From positions 169,524 through 233,523 of the forward strand of contig JAJEBV010000008.1 of the NCBI GenBank assembly GCA_022822365.1: 64,000 nt of DNA. Direction: 5' to 3'. Shown here one piece after another: positions 23,973-45,392 of this stretch. The translations under genes and the position numbers were made by a program. This stretch comes from Thermoanaerobaculia bacterium (lineage in GTDB: Bacteria; Acidobacteriota; Thermoanaerobaculia; Multivoradales; Multivoraceae). Numbering within the stretch: position 1 is the stretch's first letter; every line of letters starts with the position of its first letter. A model generated the notes under the pieces. It did no database searches, had not been told where the DNA came from, and saw only the letters and a program-made list of their open reading frames with translations.

Positions 23973-24830
23973 TCAAGGTCTCGGCATTCGCCACCCGAAC
24001 AGCTCTCGCCACGTCTCAACCGCCGCCCTCAGCTTGCCCTCGTACTCGAGCTGCAGCGCCTCTTCACTGATCGCCAACCACCCGCGCGCGATGTCGGCGA
24101 GTTCTCTGCGACGTCCTTGTCCTATCCCAGCGTTCACACTTGGGCCTAAGCCCACCGGATCGGGCCAGTCGTCTGTTATCCGGTCCGCGATCGAAGCCAT
24201 GTAGAACCGGATCTCATGGCGGTACTCGCCAAACGGCTCCGTCACAAGGTCCAGGGCCATGACCTCGAGGAGAAACGCGGGCTCGATGGGGTCTCCTGCC
24301 TCGCGGTTGATTCCCTTCACCATCTTCACGAAGGGCACGAACTTCTCGTCGCACTCCTTATTCTTCGCGGTCACGAGCGCGTGCTGCTCCCGCGGATCCG
24401 TGGCCATCCACGCCGACCCGCTAGGCATCCAGTAGCCTCCTCCGCGTCGCGGGAACACCGGAGCGACCTCGTAAGACGCAACGTCTTCCTCGCCATAGTT
24501 GATCGTGACGACGTTGTCGTCGGCGGCCAGGTCCGGCCACCGCGTCGCCAGCAGGTCGCGCAACGCGAGCACCGCCGCCGTGCCCGTACCTTCGGCCAAG
24601 TCCGCCTGCGGTCCCTCCGGGTCAACGACGACAAAGATGTCCACGTCCTTCAACCTCTTCGTTTTCGTGTGCCGCCTGTAGCTGCCGGTCAGGAAGTCGT
24701 CCACTAGTTGCCACGATGCCCCGATGTGGTCACGCACCAACTCGTGCCGGGTTTGGGCCTGTCGACTCTCGGTCCTGGTGATCTCAAGATTCGACTTCAG
24801 GTTGTCGAAAGCGTCATCGACGTAGCTCAT
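23973..24830 (-). CDS. cGAS/DncV-like nucleotidyltransferase (CD-NTase, SMODS domain)
   Basis: An ATG at 24830 gives MSYVDD (the track starts at GTG 24839). Pol-beta NTase motif GSYRRHTKTKRLKDVDIFVVV (GS...DxD) and a third acidic residue in SYEVAPVF. Last gene of a four-gene coupled operon with a Trip13-like ATPase. Confidence 0.7.
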   Translation of the reverse strand: MSYVDDAFDNLKSNLEITRTESRQAQTRHELVRDHIGASWQLVDDFLTGSYRRHTKTKRLKDVDIFVVVDPEGPQADLAEGTGTAAVLALRDLLATRWPDLAADDNVVTINYGEEDVASYEVAPVFPRRGGGYWMPSGSAWMATDPREQHALVTAKNKECDEKFVPFVKMVKGINREAGDPIEPAFLLEVMALDLVTEPFGEYRHEIRFYMASIADRITDDWPDPVGLGPSVNAGIGQGRRRELADIARGWLAISEEALQLEYEGKLRAAVETWRELFGWRMPRP

Positions 24831-24839
24831 TCTCTTCAC

Positions 24840-25349
24840 CTACTTTCGGTAGTAGGTCATTCCGGCGCTTGCGTGTGGTCCGGCCGCTAGTGTGCCGAAG
24901 CTCACCGAGCGCATGCCGGCAACGGAGGTTCTCGTTCCCGGCGACCATCCTGGCTGGGGCGAATGGGGTCCGTTGAAGCTGCAGAAGAGGCGGTACGTGG
25001 TTCCACCGGGAACTCGCTCGAACTTCGCCATGAACTGCGCCAGCGCGGCGCGGTCCGCCGTGAATTTCCGATCTCCCACCCCGGTGAAGGTGTATGACAC
25101 GGGGAATTCGAAGATCGGGCTCACCGTTCCGCTTGGTTGGTGGCATTCGAGTGCGACGCGCTCAAGCGAACCTTCTTCGATCCAGTTTGAGATGGCCGCT
25201 TGATCCCTTGGCCAGTACGCGAACAGGCGCGTGGGGTCGATTCCCAGCGTCCCCAGAATGTCGGCTATCGAGCCCATGATGACGTCCGCCAAGTGAGTAG
25301 CCGTATGGGTACGCGTGTAGGTGGTGACCGAGGTCCTGGACGACGTCAT
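24840..25349 (-). CDS. small protein (169 aa), candidate HORMA-domain partner (by size and context only)
   Basis: Internal ATG at 25349 (MTSSRTSVTTY...) overlaps the stop of the upstream gene (ATGA). Lies between the Trip13-like and CD-NTase genes. Confidence 0.45.
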   Translation of the reverse strand: MTSSRTSVTTYTRTHTATHLADVIMGSIADILGTLGIDPTRLFAYWPRDQAAISNWIEEGSLERVALECHQPSGTVSPIFEFPVSYTFTGVGDRKFTADRAALAQFMAKFERVPGGTTYRLFCSFNGPHSPQPGWSPGTRTSVAGMRSVSFGTLAAGPHASAGMTYYRK

Positions 25350-25837
25350 GACTTCATTCTCAGCCTGCGGAGGGCGTCCATGTCGATGGCTGAACGGGAA
25401 GCTCGTTCCGTCTTGGCCGTGGGTGCCGTCTTCGGCGGCGCGTCGACAGATAGGTGCGCCGAGCGCTTGGCCGCGCTGGACACACTGTTGTCGAGCGCTC
25501 CGGGCAAAGGCACATGAAGTACCCACGCGGGCGTGGCACTCCCGCCGCCGGGCACAGGGTTGAGATTCTCCTTGACGGCGAGCGCCGCATCCGCAGTGAC
25601 GACTCTAATCGTCAGATGCAGCCCGACGTCGCAAAGAACCAAGCCGTCCGACTCCAGGTGTCCGCCCGCGATGAGGGCGGGGCCCAGACCCTCTAGCGCT
25701 GTCAGCTCGCGCTCTACGCTTCCGGCCGCAACGTTGGGGCTCCGCTCAAGCGTCGTAGCGATGAGCGTCGTGACCACGTTCCACGCTTCGGCGGCGCTTC
25801 GAACGGGGGAAGCGGCGATTGTCCTTTGTCGCTCCAT
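25346..25837 (-). CDS. small protein (163 aa), candidate HORMA-domain partner (by size and context only)
   Basis: ATG at 25837 (MERQRTIAAS...) lies 1 nt after the Trip13-like stop. Its stop overlaps the next start. Confidence 0.45.
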   Translation of the reverse strand: MERQRTIAASPVRSAAEAWNVVTTLIATTLERSPNVAAGSVERELTALEGLGPALIAGGHLESDGLVLCDVGLHLTIRVVTADAALAVKENLNPVPGGGSATPAWVLHVPLPGALDNSVSSAAKRSAHLSVDAPPKTAPTAKTERASRSAIDMDALRRLRMKS

Positions 25838-25838
25838 T

Positions 25839-26759
25839 TCAGCCCTCCGAACCTCCCTGACTGATACCGCCGTCCTCCATGACCCGCGAGGCCGCCGCGA
25901 GCAGGTCGTCGATCGTCGTACTTCCCGGGTCGAGCACCGTCTCGTCCCGGCCGAGCATCGCCTCCAGAATCGTCTTCCGGACCCGCCGGCCGTCCGCTCC
26001 CGCCAAGCGTCCCGCGACCTCTTCGAGCTGCTCGTCGCAAGCAAGTTCGCCGAGACACGCGTAAGCCGGCGCCATCGACCGAAGAGCGGACCTCAGGATC
26101 GCGACGATTCCCGCAGAATCCGGCACCGGGACGTGAATTTGCACGTCCACCCGCGACAAGAAGGCCTCGTCCAGGACGCCGACGAAGTTGCTCGTTGCCA
26201 CGAAGACCAGATTGGGGAACGCCGTCGTATTCGCGTCGAGCGCCGCCAACACGGCGTCCGTCGCTCGGTGCACGTCTGCCGGATTCGCCGCCAGCGACGC
26301 CTCGCTCCTCGCGACGGCCATCGACTCGATCTCGTCAAGGAGAACGACCGTAGGCACACCGTCGTCGGCAAGGCTCGGCACGTACTCCGCGAGCAACTGC
26401 GTTACAGCGCTCTGGCTCTCCCCATGCTCGGCGCTCATGAGACCGTGGGGATTGACCTCGACCAGCCGCGCTTGACGCTTCGGGGTGATCTTCGCCAGTT
26501 CATGGGCCAGACCACGTGCCAATGTCGTCTTACCTGTTCCCGGGGGGCCGTGTAGCAGGACGAGCCCATGCAGCGCCGTCGTCTCGAAGGGCAGTTCGCG
26601 ACGTAGGCGGAGATTCAACGCCGTGGCTCGGAGCAGACGGTCCTTCACCGAAGCATCAACTACAATCGAGTCCCACAGGCCCGCGTAGGCTGGATCCGGC
26701 ATCTCGCGAACAGCGCGCACGGACTCGGCCGCTTGACTGGGTGCGTTTTCGCTTCGCAT
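25839..26759 (-). CDS. Trip13/Pch2-like AAA+ ATPase
   Basis: ATG at 26759 (MRSENAPS...). Matches Trip13 blocks: LWDSIVVDASVKDRLL, LLHGPPGTGKTTLARGLA, EVNPHGLMSAEHGESQSAV, VLLDEIESMAVAR, NLVFVATSNFVGVLDEAFLSRVD. Confidence 0.85.
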   Translation of the reverse strand: MRSENAPSQAAESVRAVREMPDPAYAGLWDSIVVDASVKDRLLRATALNLRLRRELPFETTALHGLVLLHGPPGTGKTTLARGLAHELAKITPKRQARLVEVNPHGLMSAEHGESQSAVTQLLAEYVPSLADDGVPTVVLLDEIESMAVARSEASLAANPADVHRATDAVLAALDANTTAFPNLVFVATSNFVGVLDEAFLSRVDVQIHVPVPDSAGIVAILRSALRSMAPAYACLGELACDEQLEEVAGRLAGADGRRVRKTILEAMLGRDETVLDPGSTTIDDLLAAASRVMEDGGISQGGSEG

Positions 26760-26831
26760 GACTGCAACTCTACTTCGCAACAGGCGCGACCGCAACCCTC
26801 GAATCCGGCGACTCGAACATTCCCGTGCGGC

Positions 26832-27263
26832 ATGACCATGGTCGATCCCGGTTCCCCTAAGCCAACCGCGGCCCGGCCCTCGGCGAGACCCGCTCCCAAC
26901 CGCCGACGAGATCGCCCTCAGGTGGGCAGCGTTCTCCGCCGAGCCCGCCTGCACCACGACCTCTCGCTACGCGAGGTGGAACGCCGCATCGGCCGGTCCA
27001 ACGCGTATTTGTCCCAGGTGGAGCGCGGCCTGATCAAGCAGCCCGACCCGATCGTTCTCCTGGAACTGGCCGAACTCTACGGCCTGAACTTCGAGACCCT
27101 CGCGGCCTGGGCGAACTGGGTTTCCGCCGACCCGAACCCTTCGGGCGCGCAACCGCGTGACTCAACCGCCGTTCTCGTCCGGCAGGTCATGGAACTCGAC
27201 GCCGCCGAAAGGGCGACGGTTCTCCGCTTCGTCGACTCCATCCTGCGCAAGCGGCGGACGTAG
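26832..27263 (+). CDS. XRE-family helix-turn-helix transcriptional regulator
   Basis: ATG at 26832 (MTMVDPGS...). HTH LSLREVERRIGRSNAYLSQVERG. Divergent from the Trip13-like operon with a 72-bp intergenic region. Confidence 0.7.
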   Translation: MTMVDPGSPKPTAARPSARPAPNRRRDRPQVGSVLRRARLHHDLSLREVERRIGRSNAYLSQVERGLIKQPDPIVLLELAELYGLNFETLAAWANWVSADPNPSGAQPRDSTAVLVRQVMELDAAERATVLRFVDSILRKRRT

Positions 27264-27400
27264 GCACCCCTTCCCTCATGCCTGCACGCGCCAGACCGCT
27301 CCAAGGTCTGCACTCGCAACGCTGCTAGCCGCGCGCCCTCTCCCTCTAGCTTGACCGCGGCCCCCACGCTCGCACCTGTCCAGACACGATCCCCTCCGGT

Positions 27401-28246
27401 TCAACCTCGCTCTGCGGCCTCGTACACCGGCTTCCTCAACTTGAAGAACCACTCCGGCACCATCGGGCTAAGCCGCCGATGTTCGAAGAGGCGGGCCTGC
27501 ACGAGCCGGACGTCGCAAAGTGTCTGACTACCAGACTGCGCCCCAGCCCGTGACAGGAAGCGATGCAGCTTCTCCATGCGGATCCTTGCCGCAGATTGAG
27601 CAGTAACCGCCAATACCACCCACGCGACAAGCCTGAGACACGCCGCCACCAAGAGAACCACGTCCAGCAGTGAAGCCTCTGCAAGCACCGCCCCCAGAAG
27701 GACCGTCACCACCGACGCACCTACCAACGACTTGACGACCCAGATCCACTCCCTGCGTAATCGCTCCTCCCAGCGACAGCTAGCCCTCTGGCAGTGCAAC
27801 TGCGCCGCCACCGGCTCCGCGGGAATGGCTTCCGCTCGATACCAGTCAACCAGATCCTCCGGCGAGTCCCTTCGCGCGCTCCCTTTTCTCGCCAGCTCCT
27901 TCACTCTGTCATCCGTGGGCTGCTCCACACCGCTGTGAGCCGACCAAGGTAGGTCAAGGACGAAACAGTCAAACGCCTCCTGGATCGTCGCAGCTTCCTC
28001 CTTCATCCGGTCCCCCCACCGAGCCAGAAGCGGCTGGTCCACGAACCAAAGCAAGACAACGATGACGGTCGCTGCGTGACTGTCCGACCCCGCCTCCCTG
28101 GTCAAGCCCCAGAGCGCTACAACCGCAACGGCCACCACGCCCCCGAGCCGCACGCCCTCTACCTTCTTGACCTGCCGGTACAGCCAACGCAGCGCCGCCA
28201 GCCTTTCCAGTGACCGCTGGCTGTTCTGCCGCTCCCGAATGCTCAC
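27401..28246 (-). CDS. predicted multi-pass membrane protein (candidate effector)
   Basis: 281 aa, GTG start. Hydrophobic helices (GVVAVAVVALWGL, ATVIVVLLWFV, LVGASVVTVLLGAVLAEASLLDVVLLVAACLRLVAWVVLAV). No enzymatic motif recognised. Confidence 0.5.
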   Translation of the reverse strand: MSIRERQNSQRSLERLAALRWLYRQVKKVEGVRLGGVVAVAVVALWGLTREAGSDSHAATVIVVLLWFVDQPLLARWGDRMKEEAATIQEAFDCFVLDLPWSAHSGVEQPTDDRVKELARKGSARRDSPEDLVDWYRAEAIPAEPVAAQLHCQRASCRWEERLRREWIWVVKSLVGASVVTVLLGAVLAEASLLDVVLLVAACLRLVAWVVLAVTAQSAARIRMEKLHRFLSRAGAQSGSQTLCDVRLVQARLFEHRRLSPMVPEWFFKLRKPVYEAAERG

Positions 28247-29389: not shown

Positions 29390-29725
29390 CTACCTGATCA
29401 GCGCGCGGCGCGCGCCGAACGCCTCTTTCGCCCTTGCAGCCCGGTGTTCTTCGTACAGCGCAGGATCAGGGTCGACCTCCACCATCTCGCCGTTCTCGAC
29501 GACCAGTACCTTCGTGCCGTGCACATGCGCGTCCCAGTGCGCGCGGCGCACCGCCCGCTCCATCGCCGCGGGCGCTGCCTGCATGTCGGGATCGTCGAGC
29601 TTCGACACGGGAAGTCGTTCGGACTCGTCCGCCACCGGGGTTTCTACCTCCTCGTGAGAGTCTACGAGATCCGGGTTCACCCGGCCGGCGTTATAGTCGA
29701 GAAGCTGAGGCTGGGAGCCGGTCAT
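29390..29725 (-). CDS. hypothetical small acidic protein
   Basis: Internal ATG of the track ORF 29390..29968 gives a ~111 aa acidic product. Divergent from the multiubiquitin gene with a 55-bp gap. Confidence 0.3.
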   Translation of the reverse strand: MTGSQPQLLDYNAGRVNPDLVDSHEEVETPVADESERLPVSKLDDPDMQAAPAAMERAVRRAHWDAHVHGTKVLVVENGEMVEVDPDPALYEEHRAARAKEAFGARRALIR

Positions 29726-29780: not shown

Positions 29781-30236
29781 ATGATCCACTTCACCATCAA
29801 CGGACAGGAGTTCGAGTCTCCGCAGAAACGCGTCTCCGTCGAGTGGCTCCTGAAGTTGATCGGCTGGAGCCCGAAGGACGCCCAGCTCGTGCGTGAGGTC
29901 ACGGGCGAGACGTGGTCCGACCCGTCCGCTGAGGTCGAGTTGCGCGAGGGGGACAAGTTCGAGGCCAAGCCGCGTCGGGGCCCGCTGCCTCCGGAGTCAA
30001 AGATCCACTACAAGGTGAACGGAGAGCCGCAGGTCACAACGAAGACGCCGATGATCCTCGAGGAAATCCTGCGCCGCGCGGGCGCCGACGCCGCCATCGA
30101 CCTCAACCAACTGGGGAGCTACTACCTCGACAACGTGGGTACGGGCGCCAGGTACGAGAACCTCGACGACGAAGTGCCGATCGTCGACGGCGACGAATTC
30201 GTGGCCCTCTACGCCGGACCGACGCCCGTCGCCTGA
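29781..30236 (+). CDS. multiubiquitin-like protein (two tandem beta-grasp/Ubl repeats)
   Basis: 151 aa. Two ~70-aa repeats each start with IH(F/Y)x(I/V)NG and end with (D/E)GDxF (IHFTINGQEF...EGDKFE; IHYKVNGEPQ...DGDEFVALYAG). First gene of an E2/E1/JAB operon. Confidence 0.6.
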   Translation: MIHFTINGQEFESPQKRVSVEWLLKLIGWSPKDAQLVREVTGETWSDPSAEVELREGDKFEAKPRRGPLPPESKIHYKVNGEPQVTTKTPMILEEILRRAGADAAIDLNQLGSYYLDNVGTGARYENLDDEVPIVDGDEFVALYAGPTPVA

Positions 30237-30240
30237 CGCA

Positions 30241-30621
30241 GTGCTCGAGACCATCGCCCGAGAGTTGCGGGAACTCGATGTCGAGGCCCGCGTCGTGCAT
30301 TCGTGGAACGGAATGGGGGGCGGCGGCGTCGTTTTCCCGCTCCGTGCGCCAAGCGGCCGCTTCAAGGGGAAGACACTGCAGCTTGGCCTGAGCTTTCAGG
30401 AGGATGCCTACCCTGAGTACCCGCCGCACTTCGTCCACTTTCGGCAAGCGGAGATCGAGGGCACGCACTTCACGATGCACTCGAAGCACGAGTTCGAAGG
30501 CGCCGAATGGTGGGCCTTCAGCTTCCCTCCGAGCGACTTCTGGGACCGTCTGGCGCCATCGGAGAAGAACATGCGGACCTACGTCCGGCGCCATCTCTAT
30601 CGCGTCCTGGAGCAATTGTGA
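30241..30621 (+). CDS. E2/UEV-like protein (UBC fold without a catalytic Cys)
   Basis: 126 aa, GTG start 5 nt after the previous stop. GKTLQLGLSFQEDAYPEYPPHFVHF mirrors the E2 core (FPxDYPFKPPKVxF), but the protein contains no cysteine. Confidence 0.5.
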   Translation: MLETIARELRELDVEARVVHSWNGMGGGGVVFPLRAPSGRFKGKTLQLGLSFQEDAYPEYPPHFVHFRQAEIEGTHFTMHSKHEFEGAEWWAFSFPPSDFWDRLAPSEKNMRTYVRRHLYRVLEQL

Positions 30622-32075
30622 CCTTCGAGGCGGCGTTCGTCGAGTCCACTCACGATGCAGCTTGCCGCCACCTGCTGGCGCATCTGCGCTCGGGCAGACG
30701 GCAGGAAGATCTCTGCTTCGCGCTGTGGCGGCCAAGTACCGGCGCCAGTCGGACGACCGCCCTGATTTCGGAGCTCGTCTTGCCGGAGGAAGGCGAGCGC
30801 ACCCTGCACGGCGGCGCGAGCTTCCAGCCGAACTTCCTGTCACGCGCCCTTCGCCTCGCCTGCGACCAGAACGCAGGTCTGGCCTTCCTGCACAGCCATC
30901 CGGTACCCGGCTGGCAGGGCATGAGTAGTGCGGATGTGAAGGCCGAACGGGACCGCATCGGCGGGCCGGCCCGAGCCACTGGTCTTCCGCTCGTAGGCCT
31001 CACGCTCGGAACGGACGAATCGTGGAGCGCCCGTTTCTGGAACTGGGAAGGCGGCGAGCTCGAGCGAACGTGGTGCCCGAAGGTGAGGGTCATCGGTCGT
31101 CGCCTGCGTCTGACCTGGAACGACGAACTGGTGCCGCCGCCCCGGCGGCGAGCGGTCCTCCGGCGCACGACAGACACTTGGGGCTGCGCGCGCCAATCAG
31201 ACCTGGCTCGGCTGCGGATAGGAGTCGTGGGTCTCGGGAGCGTCGGGTGCCTCGTTGCGGAGACACTCGCCCGCATCGGCGTCGAGAACATCGTTCTCGT
31301 GGACGCGGACCAAGTGAAGCGCCACAACCTGGACCGTCTCCTGTACGCTGGCGAGGACGACATCGGCCGCCTCAAAGTCGAACTCGCAGCCGAGAATCTG
31401 CGCCGGTCGGCGACGGCCGCGAACTTCACCGTCGAGTCCCACGTCGGCTGGCTCCAGCAGAGCGACTGCTATCGCGCCGCGCTGGACTGCGACGTCCTGT
31501 TCTCCTGTGTGGACCGACCTCTTCCAAAGGACCTTGTGAACCACATCGCCTACGCCCACTGCGTCCCCGTCGTGTTCGGCGGCGTCTTCGTCGACACGAA
31601 GCGGGACAGCACACTCGGCCAAGCGACCTGGAGCGTGGTCCGTGCCGGGCCCGAGCGCCGCTGCCTGCGATGCGACGGGCAGTACACGACCTCGGACGTC
31701 GCCATGGAGCGCGACGGCTCCCTGGACGACCCGAACTACATCGCCAGACTCACCGGCGGCAGACCTACGAACCAGAACGTGTTCCCGTTCAGCGCCAACC
31801 TCGCCAGTCTCATGACGCTCGAGATGATTCGAATGGTCGTGGGCGACACATGGTGGCCCCAGAATGCCGGCAAGCTGGACTACAGCTTCGTGCCGAACGT
31901 GCTTCGCACGGAAGACAGCCGCTGCCGCGAGTACTGTGAGGTGGCGAACCGGACGGCGCTGGGAGATCACATCGCCTATCCGTTCCTCGAAGCGGCGGCG
32001 CCCTCCGCCAACCTCGGGCGGATGGCTCGACTGCGAAGCTGGCTTCGGAAACTGGTAGGCGGGAGGGCCCCATGA
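30618..32075 (+). CDS. JAB/JAMM deubiquitinase-like domain fused to an E1-like (ThiF/MoeB) adenylyltransferase
   Basis: GTG start overlapping the E2-like stop (GTGA). JAMM motif LAFLHSHPVPGWQGMSSAD (HxHx7Sx2D). E1 Rossmann IGVVGLGSVGCLVAETLARIGV...VDADQVKRHNLDRLL. Cys-rich region CLRCDG. Confidence 0.8.
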   Translation: MTFEAAFVESTHDAACRHLLAHLRSGRRQEDLCFALWRPSTGASRTTALISELVLPEEGERTLHGGASFQPNFLSRALRLACDQNAGLAFLHSHPVPGWQGMSSADVKAERDRIGGPARATGLPLVGLTLGTDESWSARFWNWEGGELERTWCPKVRVIGRRLRLTWNDELVPPPRRRAVLRRTTDTWGCARQSDLARLRIGVVGLGSVGCLVAETLARIGVENIVLVDADQVKRHNLDRLLYAGEDDIGRLKVELAAENLRRSATAANFTVESHVGWLQQSDCYRAALDCDVLFSCVDRPLPKDLVNHIAYAHCVPVVFGGVFVDTKRDSTLGQATWSVVRAGPERRCLRCDGQYTTSDVAMERDGSLDDPNYIARLTGGRPTNQNVFPFSANLASLMTLEMIRMVVGDTWWPQNAGKLDYSFVPNVLRTEDSRCREYCEVANRTALGDHIAYPFLEAAAPSANLGRMARLRSWLRKLVGGRAP

Positions 32076-33340
32076 GCGCCATCACGAGTCTCGCTCTGAC
32101 GGACGTGCGCTGCTTCGAGGGTACTCAGCGTGTCGGACTGCCCCGCATCGCGGTGGTGGTGGGAGAGAACAGCGCAGGGAAGTCGACCTTCCTGGGCTGC
32201 CTTCGCGGCATGGCCAAACTGGCGAGTCTCGACGACCTGGACGACGAGAACCACTTCGATCAGCCGCCGTTCAACATGGGGCCGTTCAGCACGATCGCCC
32301 GCTCCGGCGCGGTAACCTTCGCGCTGGAAGCGACATTCGAGGGCCACAGCTACGAACGCGTGCGCGTCGTCTACGACGAAGGTCCCGACGGCGAACCCCG
32401 CGAGCGGGAGCTGGAATTCGTGCTCAGTACGAAGGGGCCCGACGCACTTGCCTTCGGCATCACGCGGATCGACCCGTCAGACGATGAACACAGGGAGACG
32501 TGGCGAGTCGCCGGACCGGGTTTCGAGTTCGACTTCGAACAGTCGTCGGTTTCCTACCGGCAGTTCAGCACTTGGCTCTCGCGCTCCGTCCGTCGGGGCA
32601 ACCTCCCGCACGACGGCGATCCGACCTTGAGGCGAAAGCGAACCGGCGACGTGACGCCGGAAGCGGATCGGGCGTTCACCCGCTTCGTGAACTTCTTCCG
32701 GGAAAGCCCTCGCGTTCCGCCGCCCGACCAGAAGCTCCTGGTTGTCGCCAACAACCCGGTCGGTTGGCCGCGCGACCGCTCGTTCGCCACAAACCCGTTC
32801 GGCCGGGCGATGGACGAGCCGAGGCTCTCCGAGATTCGGAAACTGGGTAGTGAACTCGGCCTCTTCGGCGACTTGGAGATTCGGCGCGGACCCGCTGGCG
32901 AGTACGAGGTGTGGGCCGACGCCTCCGGCGAGAGCCGCAACCTCGTCGACGTCGGCTTCGGCATTCAGAGCGCGCTGCCAATGCTCCATGCCATCGTTTC
33001 TGCGACGAAGGGGGCCACGCTCCTCCTGCAACAGCCCGAGGCTCATCTGCACCCAAGAACGCAGGCTGCGCTGGTGCGCGTGATCGTGTCGCGCGGTAGT
33101 CGGCTCCTGGTCGAGACGCATAGCGACCACGTTCCGGACTGGTTCCGTATCGCCGCGATGTCGGGGCAGGTGGATCCGCAAGACGTGGGGATCGCCTACT
33201 TCCACCGCAGTGACAACGGCGCCTCCACGACCCTGCACGACATTCGGCTTGACGATCAAGCGAATCTGGACGATCCACCGCGCGGTTTCCGGGACTTCTT
33301 CGTCGACGAGACCGAGCGACTTCTCGGCTTCCGCCGGTAG
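32072..33340 (+). CDS. ABC-type (AAA_15/AAA_21, OLD/SMC-like) ATPase
   Basis: ATG overlapping the previous stop (ATGA). Walker A GENSAGKST, Walker B/D-loop LLLQQPEAHLHP. Confidence 0.75.
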   Translation: MSAITSLALTDVRCFEGTQRVGLPRIAVVVGENSAGKSTFLGCLRGMAKLASLDDLDDENHFDQPPFNMGPFSTIARSGAVTFALEATFEGHSYERVRVVYDEGPDGEPRERELEFVLSTKGPDALAFGITRIDPSDDEHRETWRVAGPGFEFDFEQSSVSYRQFSTWLSRSVRRGNLPHDGDPTLRRKRTGDVTPEADRAFTRFVNFFRESPRVPPPDQKLLVVANNPVGWPRDRSFATNPFGRAMDEPRLSEIRKLGSELGLFGDLEIRRGPAGEYEVWADASGESRNLVDVGFGIQSALPMLHAIVSATKGATLLLQQPEAHLHPRTQAALVRVIVSRGSRLLVETHSDHVPDWFRIAAMSGQVDPQDVGIAYFHRSDNGASTTLHDIRLDDQANLDDPPRGFRDFFVDETERLLGFRR

Positions 33341-33349
33341 GGCTGGGAC

Positions 33350-33844
33350 GTGTGTACTCGGGTAGTGCTGGACGCAAGTGCGTTCGACGTCGTCAACGAG
33401 GAATCGCCGGCGTCGGCCGGCGTGCAGCTCCGACATTGGATAGCCGAAGGGCATGGGCGGGTTGCGTACTCCACCTACGATCGTTGCGGGAAGCAACTCA
33501 AGTGGGACGACAAGGTCTGGGCACTCGTTCGCCGCTACAGCCAGAGCGGCCTGGCGAATCGAGTAGCTGACCAAGATGTTCAACGGGAAGAAGAACGGCT
33601 GCGACCCGTCGTGACACGCTCCGGGGAGAACGACAGGCAAATGCTCGCCCTCGCGGCCGCCTCTGATGCGAGGGTGATGGTCGTCAAAGATGGGAACCTG
33701 ACGAAGGACTTTGAGGACGTGGCGATCCTGCCGAAGGTGCCGGGCTATCGGCGTCGGGCCTTCCCGAAGGAGCTTCCGAGCCCGGCACGCAACGACTTCC
33801 TCCACAGGCGTCGCTGCTCACGGCGGCTGTCCTCACGTTCCTGA
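33350..33844 (+). CDS. small protein with a PIN-like signature (tentative)
   Basis: GTG start 10 nt after the ATPase stop. The N-terminal VVLDASAF and the later SGENDRQMLALAAASDARVMVVKDG resemble PIN acidic-residue blocks. Weak call. Confidence 0.35.
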   Translation: MCTRVVLDASAFDVVNEESPASAGVQLRHWIAEGHGRVAYSTYDRCGKQLKWDDKVWALVRRYSQSGLANRVADQDVQREEERLRPVVTRSGENDRQMLALAAASDARVMVVKDGNLTKDFEDVAILPKVPGYRRRAFPKELPSPARNDFLHRRRCSRRLSSRS

Positions 33845-34003: not shown

Positions 34004-37000
34004 ATGGCCCTGAACCCGGTCGTCTTCACGGAGAAGGTCCTCCAGAGCTTTCTCCGCTACCAGTTGCGGGCCTATCCGTTCGCGGATCCGCGCCTGCACG
34101 GGCAGATGCGGGAACTGCTTTCGCTCGACGAAGCGCGGCAGTCGCCGCTGCTGCAGGGACCGTTCGTCAGCCTCTCGCGGCCCTTCCGCGGCGGCGCGGC
34201 TGTGGCGGATCTGGCGGATGAGGGCCTGCTCCACCCTCACCTGGAGCAACGGATCCCGAACGACATCAAGGAGCTCTACCGGCACCAGGAGAAGGCGATC
34301 CGCGCGATCGTCGGGGGGCGCTCGACGCTCGTTTCGACCGGCACCGGCTCCGGCAAGACGGAGTGCTTCCTCTACCCGATCGTCAGTCGCTGCCTGCGGC
34401 TGCGGGACGAGGGTGCGGCGGCCGGCATCAGCGCCGTGATCGTCTATCCGATGAACGCGCTGGCCGAGGATCAGTTGATGCGGCTGCGCTCGCTGCTGGC
34501 GGGCACGGGCGTTTCGTTCGGGATGTACGTCGGCAAGACGCCGGAGAGAGAAGGCGACGTGGTCGGCGTCAGGCTTCCTCCGGGATCTTCCCAGGCGGAC
34601 TACGAGGCGCAGCTAGAAGCGACGAGGAAGGCCAAGAGCGGCGAGAGCGTGTTCCCGGCCGAGGAGGCCTGCTCGCGGGAGGCGATGCGTTCGGCCGGCG
34701 AGCAACCGCGCATCCTGCTCACGAACGTGAAGCAACTGGAACTGCTTCTCACCCGCCAGCGGGACGCCGAGCTGTTCCACGGCGCCCGGCTCGACTACCT
34801 CGTGTTCGACGAGGCTCACACGTTCACCGGAGCGATGGGCGCCGAGACCGCGTGCCTCGTCCGCCGTTTACGGGCCTTCTGCGGGCGACAGGCCGCGGAC
34901 ACGGTCTGCGTCGCCACCTCGGCGACGATCGTCGACCGCGAGCGGCCGGAGGCGGCTCGCGCCTTCGCGTCACGGTTCTTCGGCGTGCCGGAGGAGTCCG
35001 TCGAGACGGTCGCGGAGGACTACGAGGAAGAGGTCTGGAGCGACGAGAGATGGCTGCCAGCGGCAGCGCCGCACGGAGACACCGCCGAGATCCTGGCTGA
35101 CTGCGTGGCGGCGGTCGAGGATGACGTGGAAGGGCCGGGAGACGCTGTCCGCCGCTCTTACCGGGCGCTTGCCGGCCGGGATCTGGACGGTGACAGTGAG
35201 CCCTGGCCCGAAGCGCTCTACGGAGCCCTGGCGCGGAGCGAGATCGTCTATCGCCTGAACGAGGCGCTACACGAGCCGCGGCCGCTCCACGAACTGCCGC
35301 CGAAGCTCGCGGAAGCCATCGGCCGGGGGATCACTGAAGCCGAGATCCTGGCCTGGCTGACCCTGGCCGCCGCGGCTCGAAGGGATGGCCGGCCTCTACT
35401 GCGGCCGGTGGTCCACGGCTTCGTGCGCGGGATTCCCGGCGCGGTCGTCTCCTTTCCGGGCGAGACGGACCAGCCTCGGCTCTGGCTGGCCGCGGAGGAC
35501 GAGATCGAGCACGGCGGGACGGCGCCGGCCGAGGGGACCGAACCGTCAGGCGAAGCGCGGTCGGCGCGTCTGCCCGTGCTCACCTGCACGACCTGCGGCC
35601 AGCACTACTATGAGGCCCATCTCGAGGACTTCTCGTTCACCGGCAAACGCCCGGGTGGCGGCGAGCCGCATGGGGACGGCGTCGTCTGGCGAAAGCTCGA
35701 CGAGGCCCGGGAGGGCAAGCGAGTGCTCCTGGTGGATCGCCTGATCGGCGGCGACGAGCACGACGCAGAGGACGAAGGCGGCCCGGCCCAGGAACGACGC
35801 AACGGCAACAGTGAGGCCGCGAGCGTCCTCGAACGGCGAACCGCTCCGGTTCACCTCTGCCGGTACTGCGGCGCGGCGCATGAACGACCGGGCGGGAACT
35901 GCCTCGCCTGCGGCGCGCCCGGCCCGAGAATCCGCCTTCACGCCGTCCGCCAGAAGAAGGACAGGCCCGGCGTCCTGACGAGCTGCCTCTCGTGCAACGC
36001 GCTGGGCGGCCGGGGCGGAGGCGGCCACTACCGCGAACCGGCGCGGCCCGTCCGCGCCAGCAACGCCGCCGACGTGCACGTTCTGGCTCAGGACATGGTC
36101 CAACAATCGGAGCGGAGGCGGCTGCTCGTGTTCTGCGACAACCGGCAAGACGCTGCGTTCCAGGCCGGCTGGATGAAGGACCACGCCCGCCGGTTCCGGC
36201 TGCGGTCGTTGATGGCCGACGGGCTCAAGGATGGGCACAGGTCGGTGGGCGACCTGACGTGGTTCCTGGAAGACGCGCTGGAGGAGGACGAGGCGCTCTC
36301 TCGCGCGTTGATCCCGGAGGTCTGGGTCGTGGCCCGCAAGGAGGCTGTCGGCCAACGCCACCGCGAGGAACGGCGGAAGTTCCTGCGCATGCAGGTGCTG
36401 CGCGAGATCTCGGAGTCCGCCCGGCAACCCCTGGGGCTCGAACCCTGGGGCCGGATGAAGGTCGACTACGCCGGTCTGGACGCCTCGCTGCCGTGGATCC
36501 AGGATCAGGCGAACCGGCTCGGCCTGCCGCCGGAATCGATGCGCGAAGGGGTCGCCGCAGCACTCGACTACGTTAGGCGGCAGAAGGTCCTCCACGACGC
36601 GGAGTACAAGACGTTCACCAAGAACTGGCTCGCCGGCGACCTGGAGATCCAGCAGGGCTATCTCCGGCGGACTGGCGGGCCAAAGGGCGTCAAGTTGAAA
36701 CGCGGCCCCGGCGACGATCGCGGCCGCGTCCTGCAATGGTTGAGTGAGGGCGGCCAGACCACGATGAGGCAGATGGCCGTGAAGTGGGGCGCCGAGCCGG
36801 AACAGGCGGAGGAGCTGCTGCGGAGCCTGTTCGAGATGTTGGTAGAGCGCGGCCTGCTGCAATCGGTGCAACTCCTGGGCGCACACAGAAACCCGATGCC
36901 GAACGCCAGCGGCGTGTACCAGGTCGACGCCGACCGAATCGAGCTGTCGCCCCACCGCGGCGTCTACCGCTGCCGCAGTTGCCGCGCCCGCACGGTCCGC

Positions 37001-40000
37001 CGGACGCCGCACGACCGCTGCCCGGCCTGGCGGTGCAACGGCACGCTGGAGTGGCTGCGCGAAGACCCGGACGACTACGACCTGCAGCTCCTGGACGGCG
37101 GCTACTCCATGCTGCGCCCGGAGGAGCACACCGCGATGGTTCCGAACCGGGAGCGGGAACGGCTGGAGAACCTGTTCAAGAGCCAGAGCGACGCGGTGAA
37201 CTGCTTCGTCTGCACCGCCACGCTTGAGCTCGGGGTCGACATCGGCGCTCTCGACGCCGTGCTGATGCGCAACGTACCGCCCCTGCCCGCCAACTACTGG
37301 CAGCGAGCCGGCCGCGCCGGCCGACGCCATCGGATGGCCGTTGATCTGACGTACTGCCGGCCCGTGTCTCACGACCGCGCCTACTTCGCCCAGCCCGAGA
37401 AGCTGCTGGCCGGGCGGGTCGACCCGCCGGCCTTCAACCTGAGCAACGACGTGATGGTCCGCAAGCACGTCAACGCTTCCGTTCTGACCGGGTTGCAGCG
37501 GCTCAGTCGGGAGAACGGTGCCGCGCCGGGCAGACTTCCCGCGGCTGAACGGGAGGAGATCGGAGCGGCGCTCGAACGCTGCCTGCCGCGCCGCGTGTCG
37601 GCCTGGCTGTTCGAGGGCGACACCGTGCGTACCGCGCCGTTCGATTTCGGGCCCCTCGCCGAGGTGATCCGGCGGCACCGGCGTACGCTTCTCGCCGAAG
37701 CCGAAGACGCCTTCGCCCAGGGTTGGCCGGCAGCGGACGCCGAGGCGGCTACGCGCGACGTGCTGGGCCGCTGCGTCGACTCCTTCACCGCCGGCCTGAA
37801 AGAAGCCGAACGCTCTCTGCGGCGCCGGCTGGAGTGGGCGCTCGCCCAGATGGAGAGGCTGAACGCGACCCGCCGACCGCGCGGCACGCTCGACCCGGAG
37901 GACAAGGCTCTGTTCCGCCGTTGCGAACAGCTCGTAGAGCGGCTCAAGGGACTTGCGCGCACGAACCGCCGCGACGCCCAGGGGCACTACGACGCGAACA
38001 CGTTCAACGTGTTGGCGGCGCAGGGCTTTCTTCCCGGCTACGGGCTCGAGACCGGGTCCGTCCAGGCGATCGCGGAAGTGCCGGTCTGGCACTCCGGGGC
38101 GCTCGCCTTCAACCTGCCCCGGCCGACCGGCATCGCGCTGCGCGAGTACGTCCCGGGCAACCTGATCTACGCCAACGGGCACCGTTTCGTGGCCAGGAGG
38201 TTCCTGCGCGGTACAGGCGAAGACCGGGAGGAGATGCCCGCGTTCGAGGTCTCGACCGAGCACCAGGCGGTGCGGCAGTGCGACGCCGGCGCTCCGGCAT
38301 CGACGATCGGCGGCGGAACGCTCAGCACGCTCGCGGTCTGCGACGTGGACCTGGCCCATCGGTCCCAGATCTCGGACGACGAGGACTACCGCTTTCAGAT
38401 GGCGGTTGCCGTCCACGGCGTCGAACGCGACGGGCACCGCGGCGGCCGCGCCTTCCAATGGGGCGAGCAGGATGCGTTGCTACGTCACGGCGTCGAACTG
38501 CGACTGGTCAATGTGGGTTCGTCGTCCGCGATCGGCGACGGTTCCGGGCTCGGCTACCCGGTATGTACGGTCTGCGGCCAGAGTGTCTCGCCGCTGTCCT
38601 CCGAGCGCCAGCAGACCGAGTTCACCAAGAGCCACCTGGAGCGGTGCGGGCGCCCGGTGGATCGGATCGGCTTCCACGCTGACGTCACTGCCGATGTCCT
38701 CTCCCTGCCGAGCCTGCCGGAGCCAGCGACCGCCTACAGCGTGCTGGAGGCACTGCGGTTCGGTGCCGCCGGGGTGCTGGACATGCACCTGGACGATTTA
38801 CAGGTCCTGGTCGTGGGCCAGGTCGACCGTCCCGAAGTAAACGCGCTGCTGTGGGACCCGATGCCCGGCGGTTCGGGCCTGCTCGATCAACTCGTCGAGC
38901 GCTTCGACGAAGTCGCCGAGGCCGCGGAAGCCACTGTCGGCGGTTGCGCGTCCGGCTGCGACCACTCGTGCATCGACTGCCTCCAGACCTTCCGAAACGG
39001 CTACTACCACAGCCATCTCAGCCGAAAGACAGCGCTGGAGTGCCTGCGCCAATGGGGGCGCGAACTGGCGCTTTCGCACCCCATTCCCGCTGCCACGCCA
39101 GCCGGTGGCGAGCCCACCGCGCAGCCCGTGAACGAGGCCGAACGCCGCCTCAGGCACCTGCTGACAGCAGCGGGCTTCGCCGAAGGCGTGCGGGGAGAAC
39201 AGATCAACCTCGGCCCGGGCCTGGGCACGACGACGCCCGACGTCATCTACCCGGGCCATGGCGGCATGCCCGATGTCTGCGTCTACCTCGACGGCCTGAG
39301 CGAGCACCTGCACGGGAATCCCCGGACCGCCGAGCGGGACCGGGAGATCCGGTACTGGTTGCGACAGCAGGGCTACGAGGTGGTCGAGATCACCGTGACG
39401 GACCTTGATGACGCCGGAGCGATGGCACGCCACTTCGTGCGGCTCGCGATGTACCTGGGCGCCGAGGAGGTGCGGAAGGCTGTCAGCGTCGGCGGTGCGT
39501 GGTTTGAAGAGGCGGCACCGGCAGGGCCAGCCGCTGCGGCTCCGCCGCCGGAGGAAACTCAGCCAAGCCGGGCCGCCGTACTCCGATTCGTCGAGCCGAC
39601 CCCGGAGAACCGCTACCGAAGCTGCGTGCCGTTTCTGGAAGACCTCGAAGCCGCAGCGGGCAACTTCGGCGACCCTCACGGCGCCTTAGGCGAGATTGGG
39701 GATTCCGGAACCCCTTGGATCGAGGTCGACTTCGGGCGCCAGCCAACGCCCGACATGTTCGCGGCCAGAGTGGCTGGAAGGTCGATGGAGCCACGTATCC
39801 CAGACGGTTCCGTCTGCCTGTTCCGCAGAGGCGTCGCCGGGAGCCGAACTGGCCGCATCGTGTTGGCCCGGCTACGGGACGCCGTCGACCCGGAAACCGG
39901 CGAGCGCTTCACCGTGAAGCGCTATCGAAGCGAGAAGCGGACGGCAGCCGATGGGCCTTGGCGCCATGTCCGGATCACGTTAGAACCGCTGAACCCCGAG

Positions 40001-45368: not shown

Positions 45369-45392
45369 CGCCTGATTGTAGTGACGCTCCCG

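Follow-up and report, generated by a model that had tools for sequence, protein, structure and literature searches.

A five-gene cassette combining a strongly diverged Bub-type ubiquitin-like conjugation module with an ABC-type ATPase and a PIN-like protein

For ubiquitin-like conjugation a catalytic cysteine is not always required, and in 2024 Bub pathways were described which conjugate their ubiquitin-like protein (Ubl) without any catalytic cysteine (PMC11601596). According to the authors, no Bub operon has given phage protection so far (PMC11601596). The window analyzed here, 64 kb of DNA from a Thermoanaerobaculia bacterium, contains genes for a Ubl, an E2-like protein devoid of cysteine and a fusion of a JAB peptidase with an E1. 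This raises the questions of whether such an operon is able to conjugate its Ubl and what the conjugation would serve. The best explanation, to which we assign a probability of roughly 0.6, is a diverged Bub conjugation module based on serine and tyrosine, together with an ATPase-controlled PIN effector that is switched by Ubl conjugation.

The three open reading frames of the preliminary description (29781–30236, 30241–30621 and 30618–32075) were found as given. That description let the operon end with the third gene; the conserved unit, however, extends to 33844 and contains two further genes that had been missed. The operon is a five-gene, translationally coupled cassette (29781–33844), and the finding noted before corresponds to its genes 1–3:

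29781 to 30236, forward strand: gene 1, Ubl (BubA-like), 151 aa (AlphaFold2, Foldseek, family alignment A2)
30241 to 30621, forward strand: gene 2, E2-like protein (BubB-like UBC fold) without cysteine, 126 aa
30618 to 32075, forward strand: gene 3, fusion of a JAB/JAMM peptidase and a ThiF-type E1 (BubCD-like), 485 aa, GTG start
32072 to 33340, forward strand: gene 4, ABC-type (AAA_21/AAA_15) ATPase, NsnB-like, 422 aa
33350 to 33844, forward strand: gene 5, PIN-like protein, 164 aa (Pfam PIN matches, alignment A4)

Between genes 1 and 2 lies a gap of 4 nt (cgca) instead of the 5 nt claimed, while the GTGA overlap of the gene 2 stop with the GTG start of gene 3 had been described correctly. 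In the same manner, the stop of gene 3 overlaps with the ATG of gene 4 (ATGA, 32072–32075). In the 73 loci mapped by tblastn and ORF maps, overlaps of 4 nt or 1 nt occur between genes 2/3 and 3/4, and the ATGA overlap of E1 and ATPase is kept in most of them.

The repeat motifs quoted for gene 1 are present, and the AlphaFold2 model (pLDDT 88) displays two beta-grasp units; in its predicted structure gene 1 is a beta-grasp protein. In Foldseek, the model comes closest to the multi-ubiquitin (BubA) structures 9cd2 and 9d5a from E. coli and Citrobacter (E 4e-8 to 3e-6), with di-ubiquitin and ISG15 next. On sequence level, Pfam Multi_ubiq is matched with E 0.006 and 17.2 bits, under the cut-off of 24.5 bits, and PDB searches with the Ubl, by sequence as well as by profile, returned noise only.

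The C-terminus of the Ubl is of special relevance, and its conserved part is encoded as follows:

30216 to 30233, forward strand: codons of the Ubl C-terminal motif G146-P-T-P-V-A151, invariant in the family

The earlier idea that the JAB might trim the Ubl to an Ala-Gly terminus is not supported. Across 65 relatives the block G-x-T-P-V-A is invariant at the C-terminus, and 42 of these proteins end exactly at the alanine of TPVA, 16 carry a variable extension of 2–13 residues behind it and seven are fused in frame to the E2, the junction lying after this alanine and not after a glycine. Since extensions and fusions start directly after the alanine, the aligned sequences make Ala151, and not Gly146, the likely reactive end that is adenylated and conjugated. 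From the same pattern it follows that the Ubl of the window already ends at the likely mature Ala151. Conjugation via a C-terminal alanine has a precedent in the cGAS of CBASS (PMC10097602). The tail PTPVA could also be a propeptide, in which case the cut would lie behind Gly146 and TPVA would be a conserved P' segment, and Gly146 is likewise invariant; this reading is ranked below the alanine terminus because conservation stops exactly at the alanine.

For gene 2, the E2 pattern AYPEYPPHFVHF and the complete lack of cysteines were found as described, and no conserved cysteine occurs among 33 aligned homologues (drawn from 114 clusters). The protein takes a UBC fold. Here, Foldseek against the PDB gave no significant E-value, with BubB reaching the top TM-score (0.56, E 0.6). 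Sequence relationships are remote: neither the E2 nor the JAB half of gene 3 matched anything in Pfam, NCBIfam or PADLOC, even up to E 10, and PDB searches with the E2, by sequence and by profile, gave noise only. An hhalign comparison of the E2 family to a single BubB sequence failed (probability 1%), and Bub could be aligned only when several canonical E2s, in a small alignment, took the place of the single sequence. Furthermore, the family is bridged by sequence to Pfam Prok-E2_E through two intermediate proteins (P0350 and P0360), a link that is transitive only. Two residues of the putative active site deserve attention:

30520 to 30522, forward strand: codon of Ser94, putative catalytic serine of the E2 (oxyester site), invariant in the family
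30427 to 30429, forward strand: codon of His63, partner residue of Ser94, invariant in the family

In MAFFT and hhalign alignments, Ser94 falls on the serine of the W-S-R-H motif of canonical BubB (S333) and His63 on the position of BubB Asp299. Bub E2s use a catalytic serine and an oxyester, and the double mutant S333A/H335A of Citrobacter BubB abolished conjugation (PMC11601596). The preliminary description took gene 2 as UEV-like and unable to form a thioester; if this is read as inactive, we find no support for it; since Ser94 is kept and aligned with the catalytic serine of BubB, the E2 is, judged from these alignments, probably catalytic and not UEV-like. However, the signature pair of Type I is missing, with Pro96 at the +2 position (His335) and His63 at that of Asp299, and therefore catalysis could differ or be lost. 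A non-catalytic UEV/RWD-like nature of such E2s was also proposed by Iyer et al. in 2006 (PMC1779556). The protein would then be an adaptor binding the Ubl or the E1, and the E1 would transfer from its adenylate or tyrosine ester straight to the target, or the Ubl would act as an unconjugated scaffold. We consider this quite unlikely, since Ser94 is invariant, the E1 retains the catalytic tyrosine, and further polar residues of the E2 besides Ser94 (H63, D99, D102, K109, H118 and R121) are invariant, which suggests a preserved active site.

The third gene was described as a fusion of a JAMM peptidase and a ThiF/E1 domain with a cysteine region, and this holds: the JAMM motif, a ThiF match (E 2e-32) and the cysteines C349-x2-C352 and C436-x3-C440 are all present. 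The relevant sites are:

30705 to 30935, forward strand: JAMM residues E30 (30705–30707) and H92-S-H94-P-x7-S103-x2-D106 (30891–30935), invariant in 67 homologues
31737 to 31739, forward strand: codon of Tyr374 in the E1 crossover loop, putative catalytic tyrosine, invariant, aligned with BubCD Y370
31662 to 31673 and 31923 to 31937, forward strand: Zn-site cysteines C349/C352 and C436/C440, all four invariant, flanking Tyr374

The best sequence match in the PDB is BubCD from Citrobacter (9ea4), with E 5e-16 for the single sequence, covering JAB and E1 domains, and 1.4e-28 for the profile. Using hhalign, a plasmid BubCD homologue was aligned over 381 columns (probability 99.4%, E 5.5e-22); this alignment reached the crossover loop, of which the profile search against the PDB fell short. 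The JAMM residues align with the Zn ligands and the catalytic glutamate of BubCD. The position of Tyr374 is invariant across this family and the canonical JAB-E1 proteins, and for Citrobacter BubCD the corresponding mutant Y370F has been described (PMC11601596). No conserved cysteine beyond the CxxC...CxxxC set is found in the crossover loop. By comparison with MoeB, ThiF and UBA5, the four invariant cysteines are read as a structural Zn site; one of them may nevertheless be catalytic.

The resemblance of this Zn site to MoeB, as well as matches of the ThiF and MoeB models to the Rossmann domain (well under the family cut-offs), could point to a sulfur-carrier or biosynthetic system of the ThiF/MoeB type, in which a ThiS/MoaD-like carrier and its adenylyltransferase act without protein conjugation. 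This is highly improbable. BubCD, and neither MoeB nor ThiF, is the best match, the operon includes a JAMM peptidase in fusion and a partner of UBC fold, and the Ubl, with its two beta-grasp domains, terminates in TPVA instead of GG. Moreover, genes for a rhodanese, a cysteine desulfurase or cofactor synthesis were absent from the scanned ORFs of the window and did not recur across the loci, and the setting is a defence island.

Genes 1–3 are a strongly diverged branch of the 6e/Type I Bub conjugation pathway. Of the family placement proposed before, Bil/Bub-like, the Bub part stands and the Bil part does not, and the operon of Ubl, E2 and JAB-E1 as such is confirmed by folds and homology. Contrary to the preliminary description, the combination of a Cys-less E2 with a JAB-E1 fusion is not unusual; in Iyer et al. 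(2006; PMC1779556) it appears as operon type 6e, consisting of a polyUbl, a Cys-less E2-like protein, including cases with a stand-alone E2 gene between, and a JAB-E1 fusion. Ye et al. (2024; PMC11601596) describe the same layout as Type I Bub (formerly 6E.1), which works via tyrosine and serine oxyesters. Of the Pfam searches suggested in the preliminary description, only ThiF passes, whereas Multi_ubiq remains below its cut-off and neither Prok-E2 nor Prok-JAB is matched. Nevertheless, the domain assignments are confirmed by fold and profile-profile evidence. Canonical Bub proteins score 5e-33, 9e-24 and 6e-11 with Multi_ubiq, Prok-E2_E and Prok-JAB; identity of the window proteins to Type I Bub is about 21–27% for the E1 and about 10–20% for the E2, and because it is so low, these models miss the proteins at their thresholds.

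The ATPase encoded by gene 4 is closest to PADLOC NsnB (E 4.7e-39), by about 19 orders of magnitude ahead of the second match, PDC-M55A (2e-20), with AriA at 1e-16, and it also matches Pfam AAA_21 (E 2.8e-16). The conserved motifs are Walker A (G31..K37-S-T39), a Walker B of the form QQPE and a GxG signature. A homologue search with the ATPase returned, among the matches listed, only members of the same cassette and no outgroup. Gene 5 is weakly assigned as PIN-like on the basis of its sequence family, of which 15 of 30 members match PIN PF01850 (best E 2e-4), seven PIN_9 and four PIN_3; its profile hit only de novo TIM-barrel noise in the PDB. Conserved in alignment A4 are D8, E49, D95, D114, D120 and Cys156, and Met1-Cys2 is invariant. 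Neither gene 4 nor gene 5 matches Pfam DUF6527, the family of BubE.

Are these two genes part of the same system? The family is rare, with 74 representatives among 1.84 billion proteins, and all genomic copies are metagenome-assembled genomes (MAGs), several from sponge-metagenome bin series. In about 64 of 73 related loci, which span at least eight phyla, the conjugation genes are followed by ATPase and PIN; taken singly, the ATPase is syntenic in 67 of 74 loci and the PIN gene in 64 of 74, located 8–14 nt past the ATPase. In 39 complete loci, the five proteins co-diverge, with correlations of the pairwise-identity matrices of r 0.82–0.93, and according to ORF clustering no other family neighbors the cassette in more than 13 loci. 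BubE is found neither in the 64-kb window nor in the 73 loci (best E 0.87 with a custom HMM, positive controls 1e-52 to 1e-60).

As proposed before, the operon is of a defence-associated kind, and it sits in a defence island: upstream lies a type III CBASS (HORMA/TRIP13) on the other strand, and downstream a DruE-like helicase, a Fic protein and mad3-like ATPases are found. DruE was considered as a member of the cassette and rejected, since it accompanies the five genes in only nine loci, eight of which are close relatives, and can lie on one side or the other. A scan of IMG/VR found no relative, and therefore carriage by phages is without support.

Within such an island unrelated systems are packed together, and genes 1–3 could be a minimal Bub operon without BubE that merely adjoins a separate ATPase and PIN defence or toxin system (genes 4–5), without cross-talk. 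Three-gene loci of Ubl, E2 and E1 lacking ATPase and PIN do exist among the nearest outgroups, in the close relatives L069–L071 and the bridging loci L078 and L079, and NsnB-type ATPases of Menshen pair with PIN-like proteins without any Ubl machinery (PMC12065111). We judge two independent systems unlikely, since order and spacing are constant in the about 64 loci while all other neighbors change, the divergence of E1 and ATPase is tightly correlated (r 0.93), their genes keep the ATGA overlap in most loci, and the pair sits exactly where BubE has been lost in this clade. A functional link of the conjugation module with the ATPase/PIN pair is what we infer, adjacency and co-inheritance not being proof of regulation.

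For the diverged Bub module coupled to its effector, the following mechanism can be proposed. In analogy to Citrobacter Bub, the E1 would adenylate the C-terminal carboxylate of the Ubl, here Ala151, with no processing needed in this genome, and the Ubl would then be loaded on the crossover-loop residue Tyr374, forming an oxyester. From there it would pass to Ser94 of the E2, helped by His63 instead of the His/Asp pair of canonical BubB, and the E2 would transfer it to an amine of the target. The JAB probably removes extensions or the fused E2 from the Ubl in those relatives that have them, and all its catalytic residues are kept also in genomes whose Ubl requires no trimming; probably it also deconjugates, which is the role of BubE in canonical Bub operons. 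The oxyester chemistry in this clade, the alanine as reactive residue and this dual role of the JAB are inferred. Genes 4 and 5, in the place of BubE, most likely represent a nuclease effector under ATPase control, of the Menshen, PARIS or Septu type, and Ubl conjugation would switch its activity; the Ubl could be attached to this pair or to a protein of the phage. A more detailed version is conceivable, although we hold it only tentatively: the Bub-type module replaced both a Menshen-like NsnA sensor and BubE, and attachment and removal of the Ala-linked Ubl would license a PIN nuclease held by the ABC-type ATPase, with the ATPase, the PIN protein (conceivably at Cys2) or a phage protein as target.

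Since the conjugation module is coupled to, and co-evolves with, a defence-type ATPase and a PIN protein while BubE is lost, a testable hypothesis for the output of Bub is at hand. If the detailed version is true, a Bub pathway would have a defined output for the first time, and an abortive-infection effector of the ATPase-nuclease kind would for the first time be seen under ubiquitin-like control; the cassette would also be an immune module that the marine-sponge microbiome shares by horizontal transfer. That the family seems confined to uncultured MAGs, which belong to many phyla and in several cases come from sponge metagenomes, suggests such a niche-specific horizontal spread. The alanine terminus of the Ubl (TPVA) and a Ser/His constellation of the E2 unlike that of either Bub type would widen the known chemistry, and the current Pfam and PADLOC models miss this whole branch of bacterial ubiquitin-like systems.

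The closest characterized relative is the Type I Bub system BubAB/BubCD/BubE from Citrobacter sp. RHBSTW-00271 (PMC11601596; PDB 9ea4, 9eav). Both have in common a Ubl of multiple beta-grasp domains, a Cys-less E2 of UBC fold with an invariant serine at the catalytic position, an E1 with a single adenylation domain and an N-terminal JAB carrying the JAMM residues, a crossover-loop tyrosine in place of the catalytic cysteine (Y374 and Y370, respectively), the order Ubl, E2, JAB-E1 and a location in defence or mobile regions. In Type I Bub, the first gene codes for a Ubl with one to three beta-grasp domains, which agrees with the two units of gene 1. In Citrobacter, however, Ubl and E2 are fused and cleaved by the JAB after a conserved glycine, whereas the window has separate genes with the 4-nt gap. 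The Ubl of Type I ends in glycine, that of the window in the alanine of TPVA, and the BubB serine is accompanied by an invariant histidine at +2 and an invariant aspartate in beta-4, in contrast to Pro96 and His63 here. The E1 of the window keeps a four-cysteine Zn site, which is lacking in the plasmid homologue used for the alignment, a protein with about 83% identity to Citrobacter BubCD. It has been stated that "all Bub operons possess bubE" (PMC11601596); this hallmark, the DUF6527 serine protease, is missing from the cassette, and the ABC ATPase and the PIN protein are extra.

A Ubl-E2 fusion does not strictly define 6e, because canonical 6e operons with a split E2 are known, from plasmids of Synechocystis PCC 6803 (pSYSX), Nostoc PCC 7120 (pCC7120beta) and Paracoccus marcusii (pMARC5). 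These have nearly the same sizes as the window genes (Ubl 151–179 aa, stand-alone E2 126 aa, JAB-E1 about 470 aa), a four-part layout, similar stop/start overlaps and the Zn-site cysteines of the E1. They differ in ending with DUF6527 (BubE), in the Ubl terminus TTEG and the W-S-R-H motif of the E2, and, in two of three, in upstream regulators of the ImmA/IrrE type (HTH and ImmA/IrrE in Synechocystis), none of which is present in the window.

For genes 4 and 5, the nearest counterpart is Menshen (NsnA-NsnB-NsnC), reportedly an anti-phage system from the work of Millman in 2022. The pairing of NsnB with the PIN protein NsnC and the parallels to the ATPase-nuclease systems Septu and PARIS have been outlined (PMC12065111). 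Gene 4 is nearest to NsnB and shares its GxG signature, and as NsnB is followed by NsnC, the ATPase of the window is followed by a small PIN-fold protein. NsnA (ParB/DUF262), in contrast, is missing, with no match to PADLOC NsnA or Pfam DUF262 in the cassette genes, and the Ubl-E2-JAB/E1 module stands upstream instead. NsnC carries an N-terminal PIN-like domain that has lost its acidic residues and is predicted to dock on the NsnB dimer, followed by a C-terminal effector domain (PMC12065111). Gene 5 retains the acidic D-E-D-D set (D8/E49/D95/D114), its tail is short, at about 40 aa, and forms no separate effector domain, and no PADLOC NsnC model matches it.

In type II CBASS (Cap2/Cap3), an E1/E2/JAB machinery is likewise tied to an immune effector pathway, conjugation proceeds via a single C-terminal glycine or alanine and not via Gly-Gly, and the JAB serves as trimming enzyme and deconjugase, as proposed for the window. 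Cap2, however, uses cysteine thioesters and is an E2-E1 fusion, in contrast to the JAB-E1 fusion, of which the PADLOC E1-E2 models match only the Rossmann part, and the conjugated protein is the cyclase itself (CD-NTase) instead of a beta-grasp Ubl. The Bil system (BilABCD) resembles the cassette in a bacterial Ubl conjugated by E1 and E2, a JAB peptidase and a link to anti-phage defence. Its E2 contains the cysteine, its E1 has the architecture IAD-AAD-CYS and its JAB stands alone, whereas the window combines a Cys-less E2 with an E1 of 485 aa that is a JAB fusion with a single ThiF domain.

Genes 1–3 of the operon starting at 29781 encode a ubiquitin-like (Ubl) protein, an E2-like protein and a JAB-E1 fusion, and with a probability of about 0.9 they form a Bub-type conjugation module. 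The preliminary description included these three genes and placed the end of the unit too early, as two further genes continue in the 3' direction. All motifs it quoted for genes 1–3 were found in the ORFs of the window, whose G+C content is about 65–70%. The GTGA overlap of genes 2 and 3 is present as described, while the gap between genes 1 and 2 measures 4 nt instead of 5 nt.

29781-30236, + strand: gene 1, Ubl, ORF of 151 aa
30241-30621, + strand: gene 2, E2, ORF of 126 aa with a GTG start 4 nt past the gene 1 stop
30618-32075, + strand: gene 3, JAB-E1, 485 aa; its GTG start overlaps the gene 2 TGA as GTGA
32072-33340, + strand: gene 4, ATPase, 422 aa; its ATG overlaps the gene 3 stop (ATGA)
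33350-33844, + strand: gene 5, PIN-like protein, 164 aa, 9 nt past gene 4

In the database scans of genes 1–3, the sole match above threshold was ThiF on gene 3 (E 2e-32). Here, the Multi_ubiq match of gene 1 stayed below the Pfam threshold (E 0.006), gene 2 gave no match in Pfam, NCBIfam, PADLOC or a PDB sequence search, and none was obtained for the JAB half of gene 3. The predicted model of gene 1 (pLDDT 88) displays two beta-grasp units, and its top Foldseek matches are the BubA multi-ubiquitins of E. coli ZDHYS365 and Citrobacter (9cd2, 9d5a), behind which di-ubiquitin and ISG15 are ranked. The best PDB sequence match of gene 3 is BubCD of Citrobacter (E 5e-16 as single sequence, 1.4e-28 with the family profile); the single-sequence alignment covers the JAB as well as the E1 domain, and hhalign against a plasmid BubCD homologue yields 99.4% probability across 381 columns. 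With a BubA fold in gene 1 and BubCD matches in gene 3, the Bub-like family had been named correctly.

Operons of this type are known as 6e and have four parts, a polyUbl, a Cys-less E2/RWD-like domain, a JAB-E1 fusion and a metal-binding protein (Iyer, Burroughs, Aravind 2006, PMC1779556, Table 1). The E2-like domain is sometimes a separate gene between polyUbl and JAB-E1 (PMC1779556). They were renamed Bub by Ye et al. 2024 (PMC11601596), who showed that the BubAB fusion is cut after a Gly by BubCD, the JAB-E1 protein, and that the fourth protein, BubE (DUF6527), is a Ser-His protease. A fused canonical operon was found on an IncHI2 plasmid (Prok-E2_E 5e-33, Multi_ubiq 9e-24, Prok-JAB 6e-11, DUF6527 9e-22). 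Split canonical operons are present on Synechocystis pSYSX, Nostoc pCC7120beta and Paracoccus pMARC5, with proteins of 151-179 aa (Ubl), 126 aa (E2) and ~470 aa (JAB-E1) besides DUF6527. The combination of a Cys-less E2 with a JAB-E1, previously considered unusual, is shared by the 6e/Bub operons (PMC1779556, PMC11601596) and is thus a hallmark of the family rather than an oddity.

Divergent genes for M78 (ImmA/IrrE) metallopeptidases lie upstream of related three- or four-gene Ubl-E2-E1 operons on two plasmids (L075, L077) and on a TARA metagenome scaffold (L079). In L075 and L079 the M78 gene is paired with an annotated HTH gene, and these pairs resemble CapH/CapP-type regulators. For the five-gene cassette, ORF clustering across the loci revealed no conserved regulator.

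A genome scan with E2 motifs identified 73 loci, across which the order Ubl, E2, JAB-E1, ATPase and 164-aa gene is constant (tblastn and ORF mapping). In the related loci, 4 or 1 nt are shared between genes 2 and 3 and between genes 3 and 4, and a spacer of 8-14 nt separates gene 4 from gene 5. With the window counted, the ATPase is present in 67/74 loci and the fifth gene in 64/74; where one of them is lacking, the locus mostly lies at a contig end, contains a frameshift or is one of a few degenerate copies. All-against-all ORF clustering revealed no other flanking family in more than 13 loci. Furthermore, the pairwise-identity matrices of the five proteins correlate in the 39 complete loci with r 0.82-0.93 (E1 and ATPase 0.93), and therefore the five genes were inherited as one block. 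It is thus very likely that genes 1–3 belong to a five-gene unit. The closest outgroup loci, those of P0350 (TARA sample) and P0360, consist of three genes (Ubl-E2-E1) and lack ATPase and PIN genes, and one of them has an HTH and M78 peptidase regulator pair; that the cassette represents two merely adjacent systems is nevertheless unlikely. Neither the 64-kb window nor any of the loci yielded a match to a BubE HMM, the best E being 0.87, while its positive controls gave 1e-52 to 1e-60.

In one locus of a Rhodothermales MAG (L023), a 1.47 kb insert at 6527-8001 separates the Ubl gene from the E2 gene, which are tightly coupled elsewhere; judged by eye, its product is a TnpB/IS605-type protein (…CSVCGH…FTCMSCGHADHADLNAAANI…). 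In the three most divergent loci (L069, L070 and L071, from Dehalococcoidia and Terriglobia), tblastn detected E2 and JAB-E1 and no Ubl, ATPase or PIN gene. The pair in L069 is flanked by housekeeping genes. These loci represent a minimal form or have decayed.

Every genomic copy (73 loci) is found in an uncultured MAG, distributed over at least eight phyla. The hosts include Acidobacteriota (Thermoanaerobaculia with Ca. Multivorans, Vicinamibacteria, Bryobacterales), Gemmatimonadota, Rhodothermales, Alpha- and Gammaproteobacteria, Spirochaetia, Ca. Binatia, Latescibacterota and Dehalococcoidia. The closest locus, from Ca. Multivorans, displays 86-93% protein identity to the window. Several host taxon names are sponge-derived, for example Ca. 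Poriferihabitans; the abstract of a genome and metagenome note on sponges names Poriferihabitaceae. Several of the MAGs belong to sponge-metagenome bin series, of which SB066x and PNGco_C appear among the sponge-associated genomes of PMC7883664. This suggests a horizontal spread of the cassette within the sponge microbiome, and a restriction to this microbiome is only a lead. No relatives were found in IMG/VR.

On the level of catalytic residues, the JAMM residues E30, H92, H94, S103 and D106 of gene 3 are invariant in 67 homologues, as are the pairs C349-x2-C352 and C436-x3-C440. These four cysteines, which we take to be a structural Zn site like that of MoeB, ThiF and UBA5, are kept in the split canonical JAB-E1s, whereas the plasmid BubCD homologue lacks them. 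The crossover loop between the two pairs contains no further conserved Cys. An adenylation-site Arg corresponding to R227 of BubCD is conserved. Sulfur-carrier chemistry as the function of the system is highly improbable. In Bub, the E1 uses the crossover-loop tyrosine Y370 and the E2 the serine S333 together with H335 and D299, and therefore the pathway runs on oxyesters (PMC11601596). Tyr374 in the crossover loop of gene 3 is invariant, falls on Y370 of BubCD by hhalign and stays invariant when four canonical proteins are aligned together with the family.

Among 1.84 billion representatives, an exhaustive HMM search identified only 74 proteins of the E2 family at E 1e-3 or better. Invariant are the blocks SFQE-AYPEYPPHF and F-S94-x-PPSDFWD as well as K109, H118 and R121. 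Against the canonical E2s, hhalign yields a probability of 72% (E 3e-5), and MAFFT and hhalign agree in placing S94 on the serine of the canonical W-S-R-H motif, H63 on the position of Asp299 and P96 on that of His335. The outgroup proteins P0350 and P0360, weaker matches of the family with the motif PH[FW][VI]H...KWSRP, also pass Pfam Prok-E2_E; belonging to both searches, they represent a sequence bridge between the E2 family and Prok-E2_E. Judged from these alignments, gene 2 is a diverged Prok-E2_E/BubB, in which the catalytic serine is kept and the helper residues differ. Since this serine is kept, oxyester catalysis would be expected; the initial UEV-like reading, if taken to mean an inactive E2, is not supported. 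The differing helper residues might fit a non-catalytic adaptor, which, with S94 invariant and aligned to the catalytic serine, is rather improbable.

The last conserved block of the Ubl is G-x-T-P-V-A in 65 relatives, 42 of which end exactly at this Ala. Unrelated extensions of 2-13 residues past the Ala (WAP, QL, CRSTQ, LLPIP...) are present in 16/65, most of them owing to an overlap of the gene with the E2 start. The remaining 7/65 read in frame into E2; they amount to fusions like BubAB, and their junction lies immediately past the Ala. The halt of conservation at the Ala and, in most lineages, the stop codon at this site mark Ala as the putative mature and reactive end. In type II CBASS, the E1 accepts a substrate with a C-terminal Ala (PMC10097602). 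It had been proposed that JAB exposes an Ala-Gly end; Gly146 is likewise invariant, yet this is less likely, as conservation and most stops fall at the Ala. Ending already in …AGPTPVA, the Ubl of the window would need no processing. Because the JAMM site is invariant even without a need for trimming and BubE is missing, the JAB domain is proposed to deconjugate as well, and the odds are even that it acts as both trimming enzyme and deconjugase. With Ala as reactive end, the Ubl would be relayed by oxyester from Ala151-AMP via Y374 and S94 to a target amine, a route which we somewhat favor.

The cassette is surrounded by further defence-type genes, including a type III CBASS that is complete and encoded upstream on the other strand (23973-28246):

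23973-24839, - strand: CBASS CD-NTase cyclase (PADLOC 4e-86)
24840-25526, - strand: CBASS HORMA
25839-26957, - strand: CBASS TRIP13
26733-27263, + strand: HTH gene between TRIP13 and the 4TM effector
27401-28246, - strand: CBASS 4TM effector
~29390-29640, - strand: small conserved ORF (…LPVSKLDDPDMQAAPAAMERAVRRAHWDAHVHGTKVLVVENGEMVEVDPDPALYE…), divergent from gene 1
34004-40117, + strand: DruE-like helicase, 2037 aa (PADLOC DruE3 1e-112)

Since this CBASS uses HORMA/TRIP13 and not Cap2/Cap3, the Ubl machinery does not serve it. The small ORF, which could be an antitoxin-like or regulatory protein, is found again in ~7 related Thermoanaerobaculia loci, where its position relative to the cassette varies. 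The helicase contains DEAD, Helicase_C and MrfA Zn-binding domains and a C-terminal S24/LexA-type peptidase; it accompanies the cassette, upstream or downstream, in 9 loci (L001-L008, L064), eight of them closely related. More defence-type genes lie at 44382-49201 on the - strand, among them a protein with a Fic domain (PADLOC PDC-S04/SoFic, 1e-18) and two large ATPases whose C-terminal halves are mad3-like (4e-29 and 8e-24); these genes confirm the whole region as a defence island.

Gene 4 encodes an ABC-type ATPase (Pfam AAA_21 2.8e-16, also AAA_15) with conserved Walker A, QQPE Walker B, H-loop and GxG signature. Its best PADLOC match is NsnB of Menshen (4.7e-39), followed by PDC-M55A (2e-20) and AriA (1e-16). 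In the gene 5 family, 15/30 members match PF01850 (best E 2e-4), and some others match PIN_9 or PIN_3. The family alignment contains the acidic residues D8/E49/D95/D114, a pattern presumably typical of active PIN RNases. The Met-Cys N-terminus (33350-33355) is invariant in 30/30 aligned homologues, and a second invariant cysteine, Cys156 (33815-33817), lies in the basic C-terminal tail. With the Met removed, the N-terminal Cys would be an unusual and chemically attractive acyl acceptor. That conjugation controls the ATPase-PIN effector is only tentatively proposed.

The cassette belongs to a branch of 6e/Type I Bub that is rare and invisible to the databases. What is new goes beyond the preliminary description and comprises four points: the branch itself, the swap of BubE for an NsnB-like ATPase and a PIN nuclease, the TPVA end of the Ubl, and the Ser/His constellation of the E2. 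The branch is moderately interesting, as it provides a starting point for finding the output of Bub pathways. For Menshen, the prediction is that NsnB binds the catalytically dead N-terminal PIN-like domain of NsnC, which has been likened to PtuA holding PtuB and AriA holding AriB (PMC12065111). In the cassette, the Ubl-E2-JAB/E1 module occupies the place of NsnA and, in contrast to the dead domain of NsnC, the PIN domain of gene 5 looks catalytically competent by its sequence.
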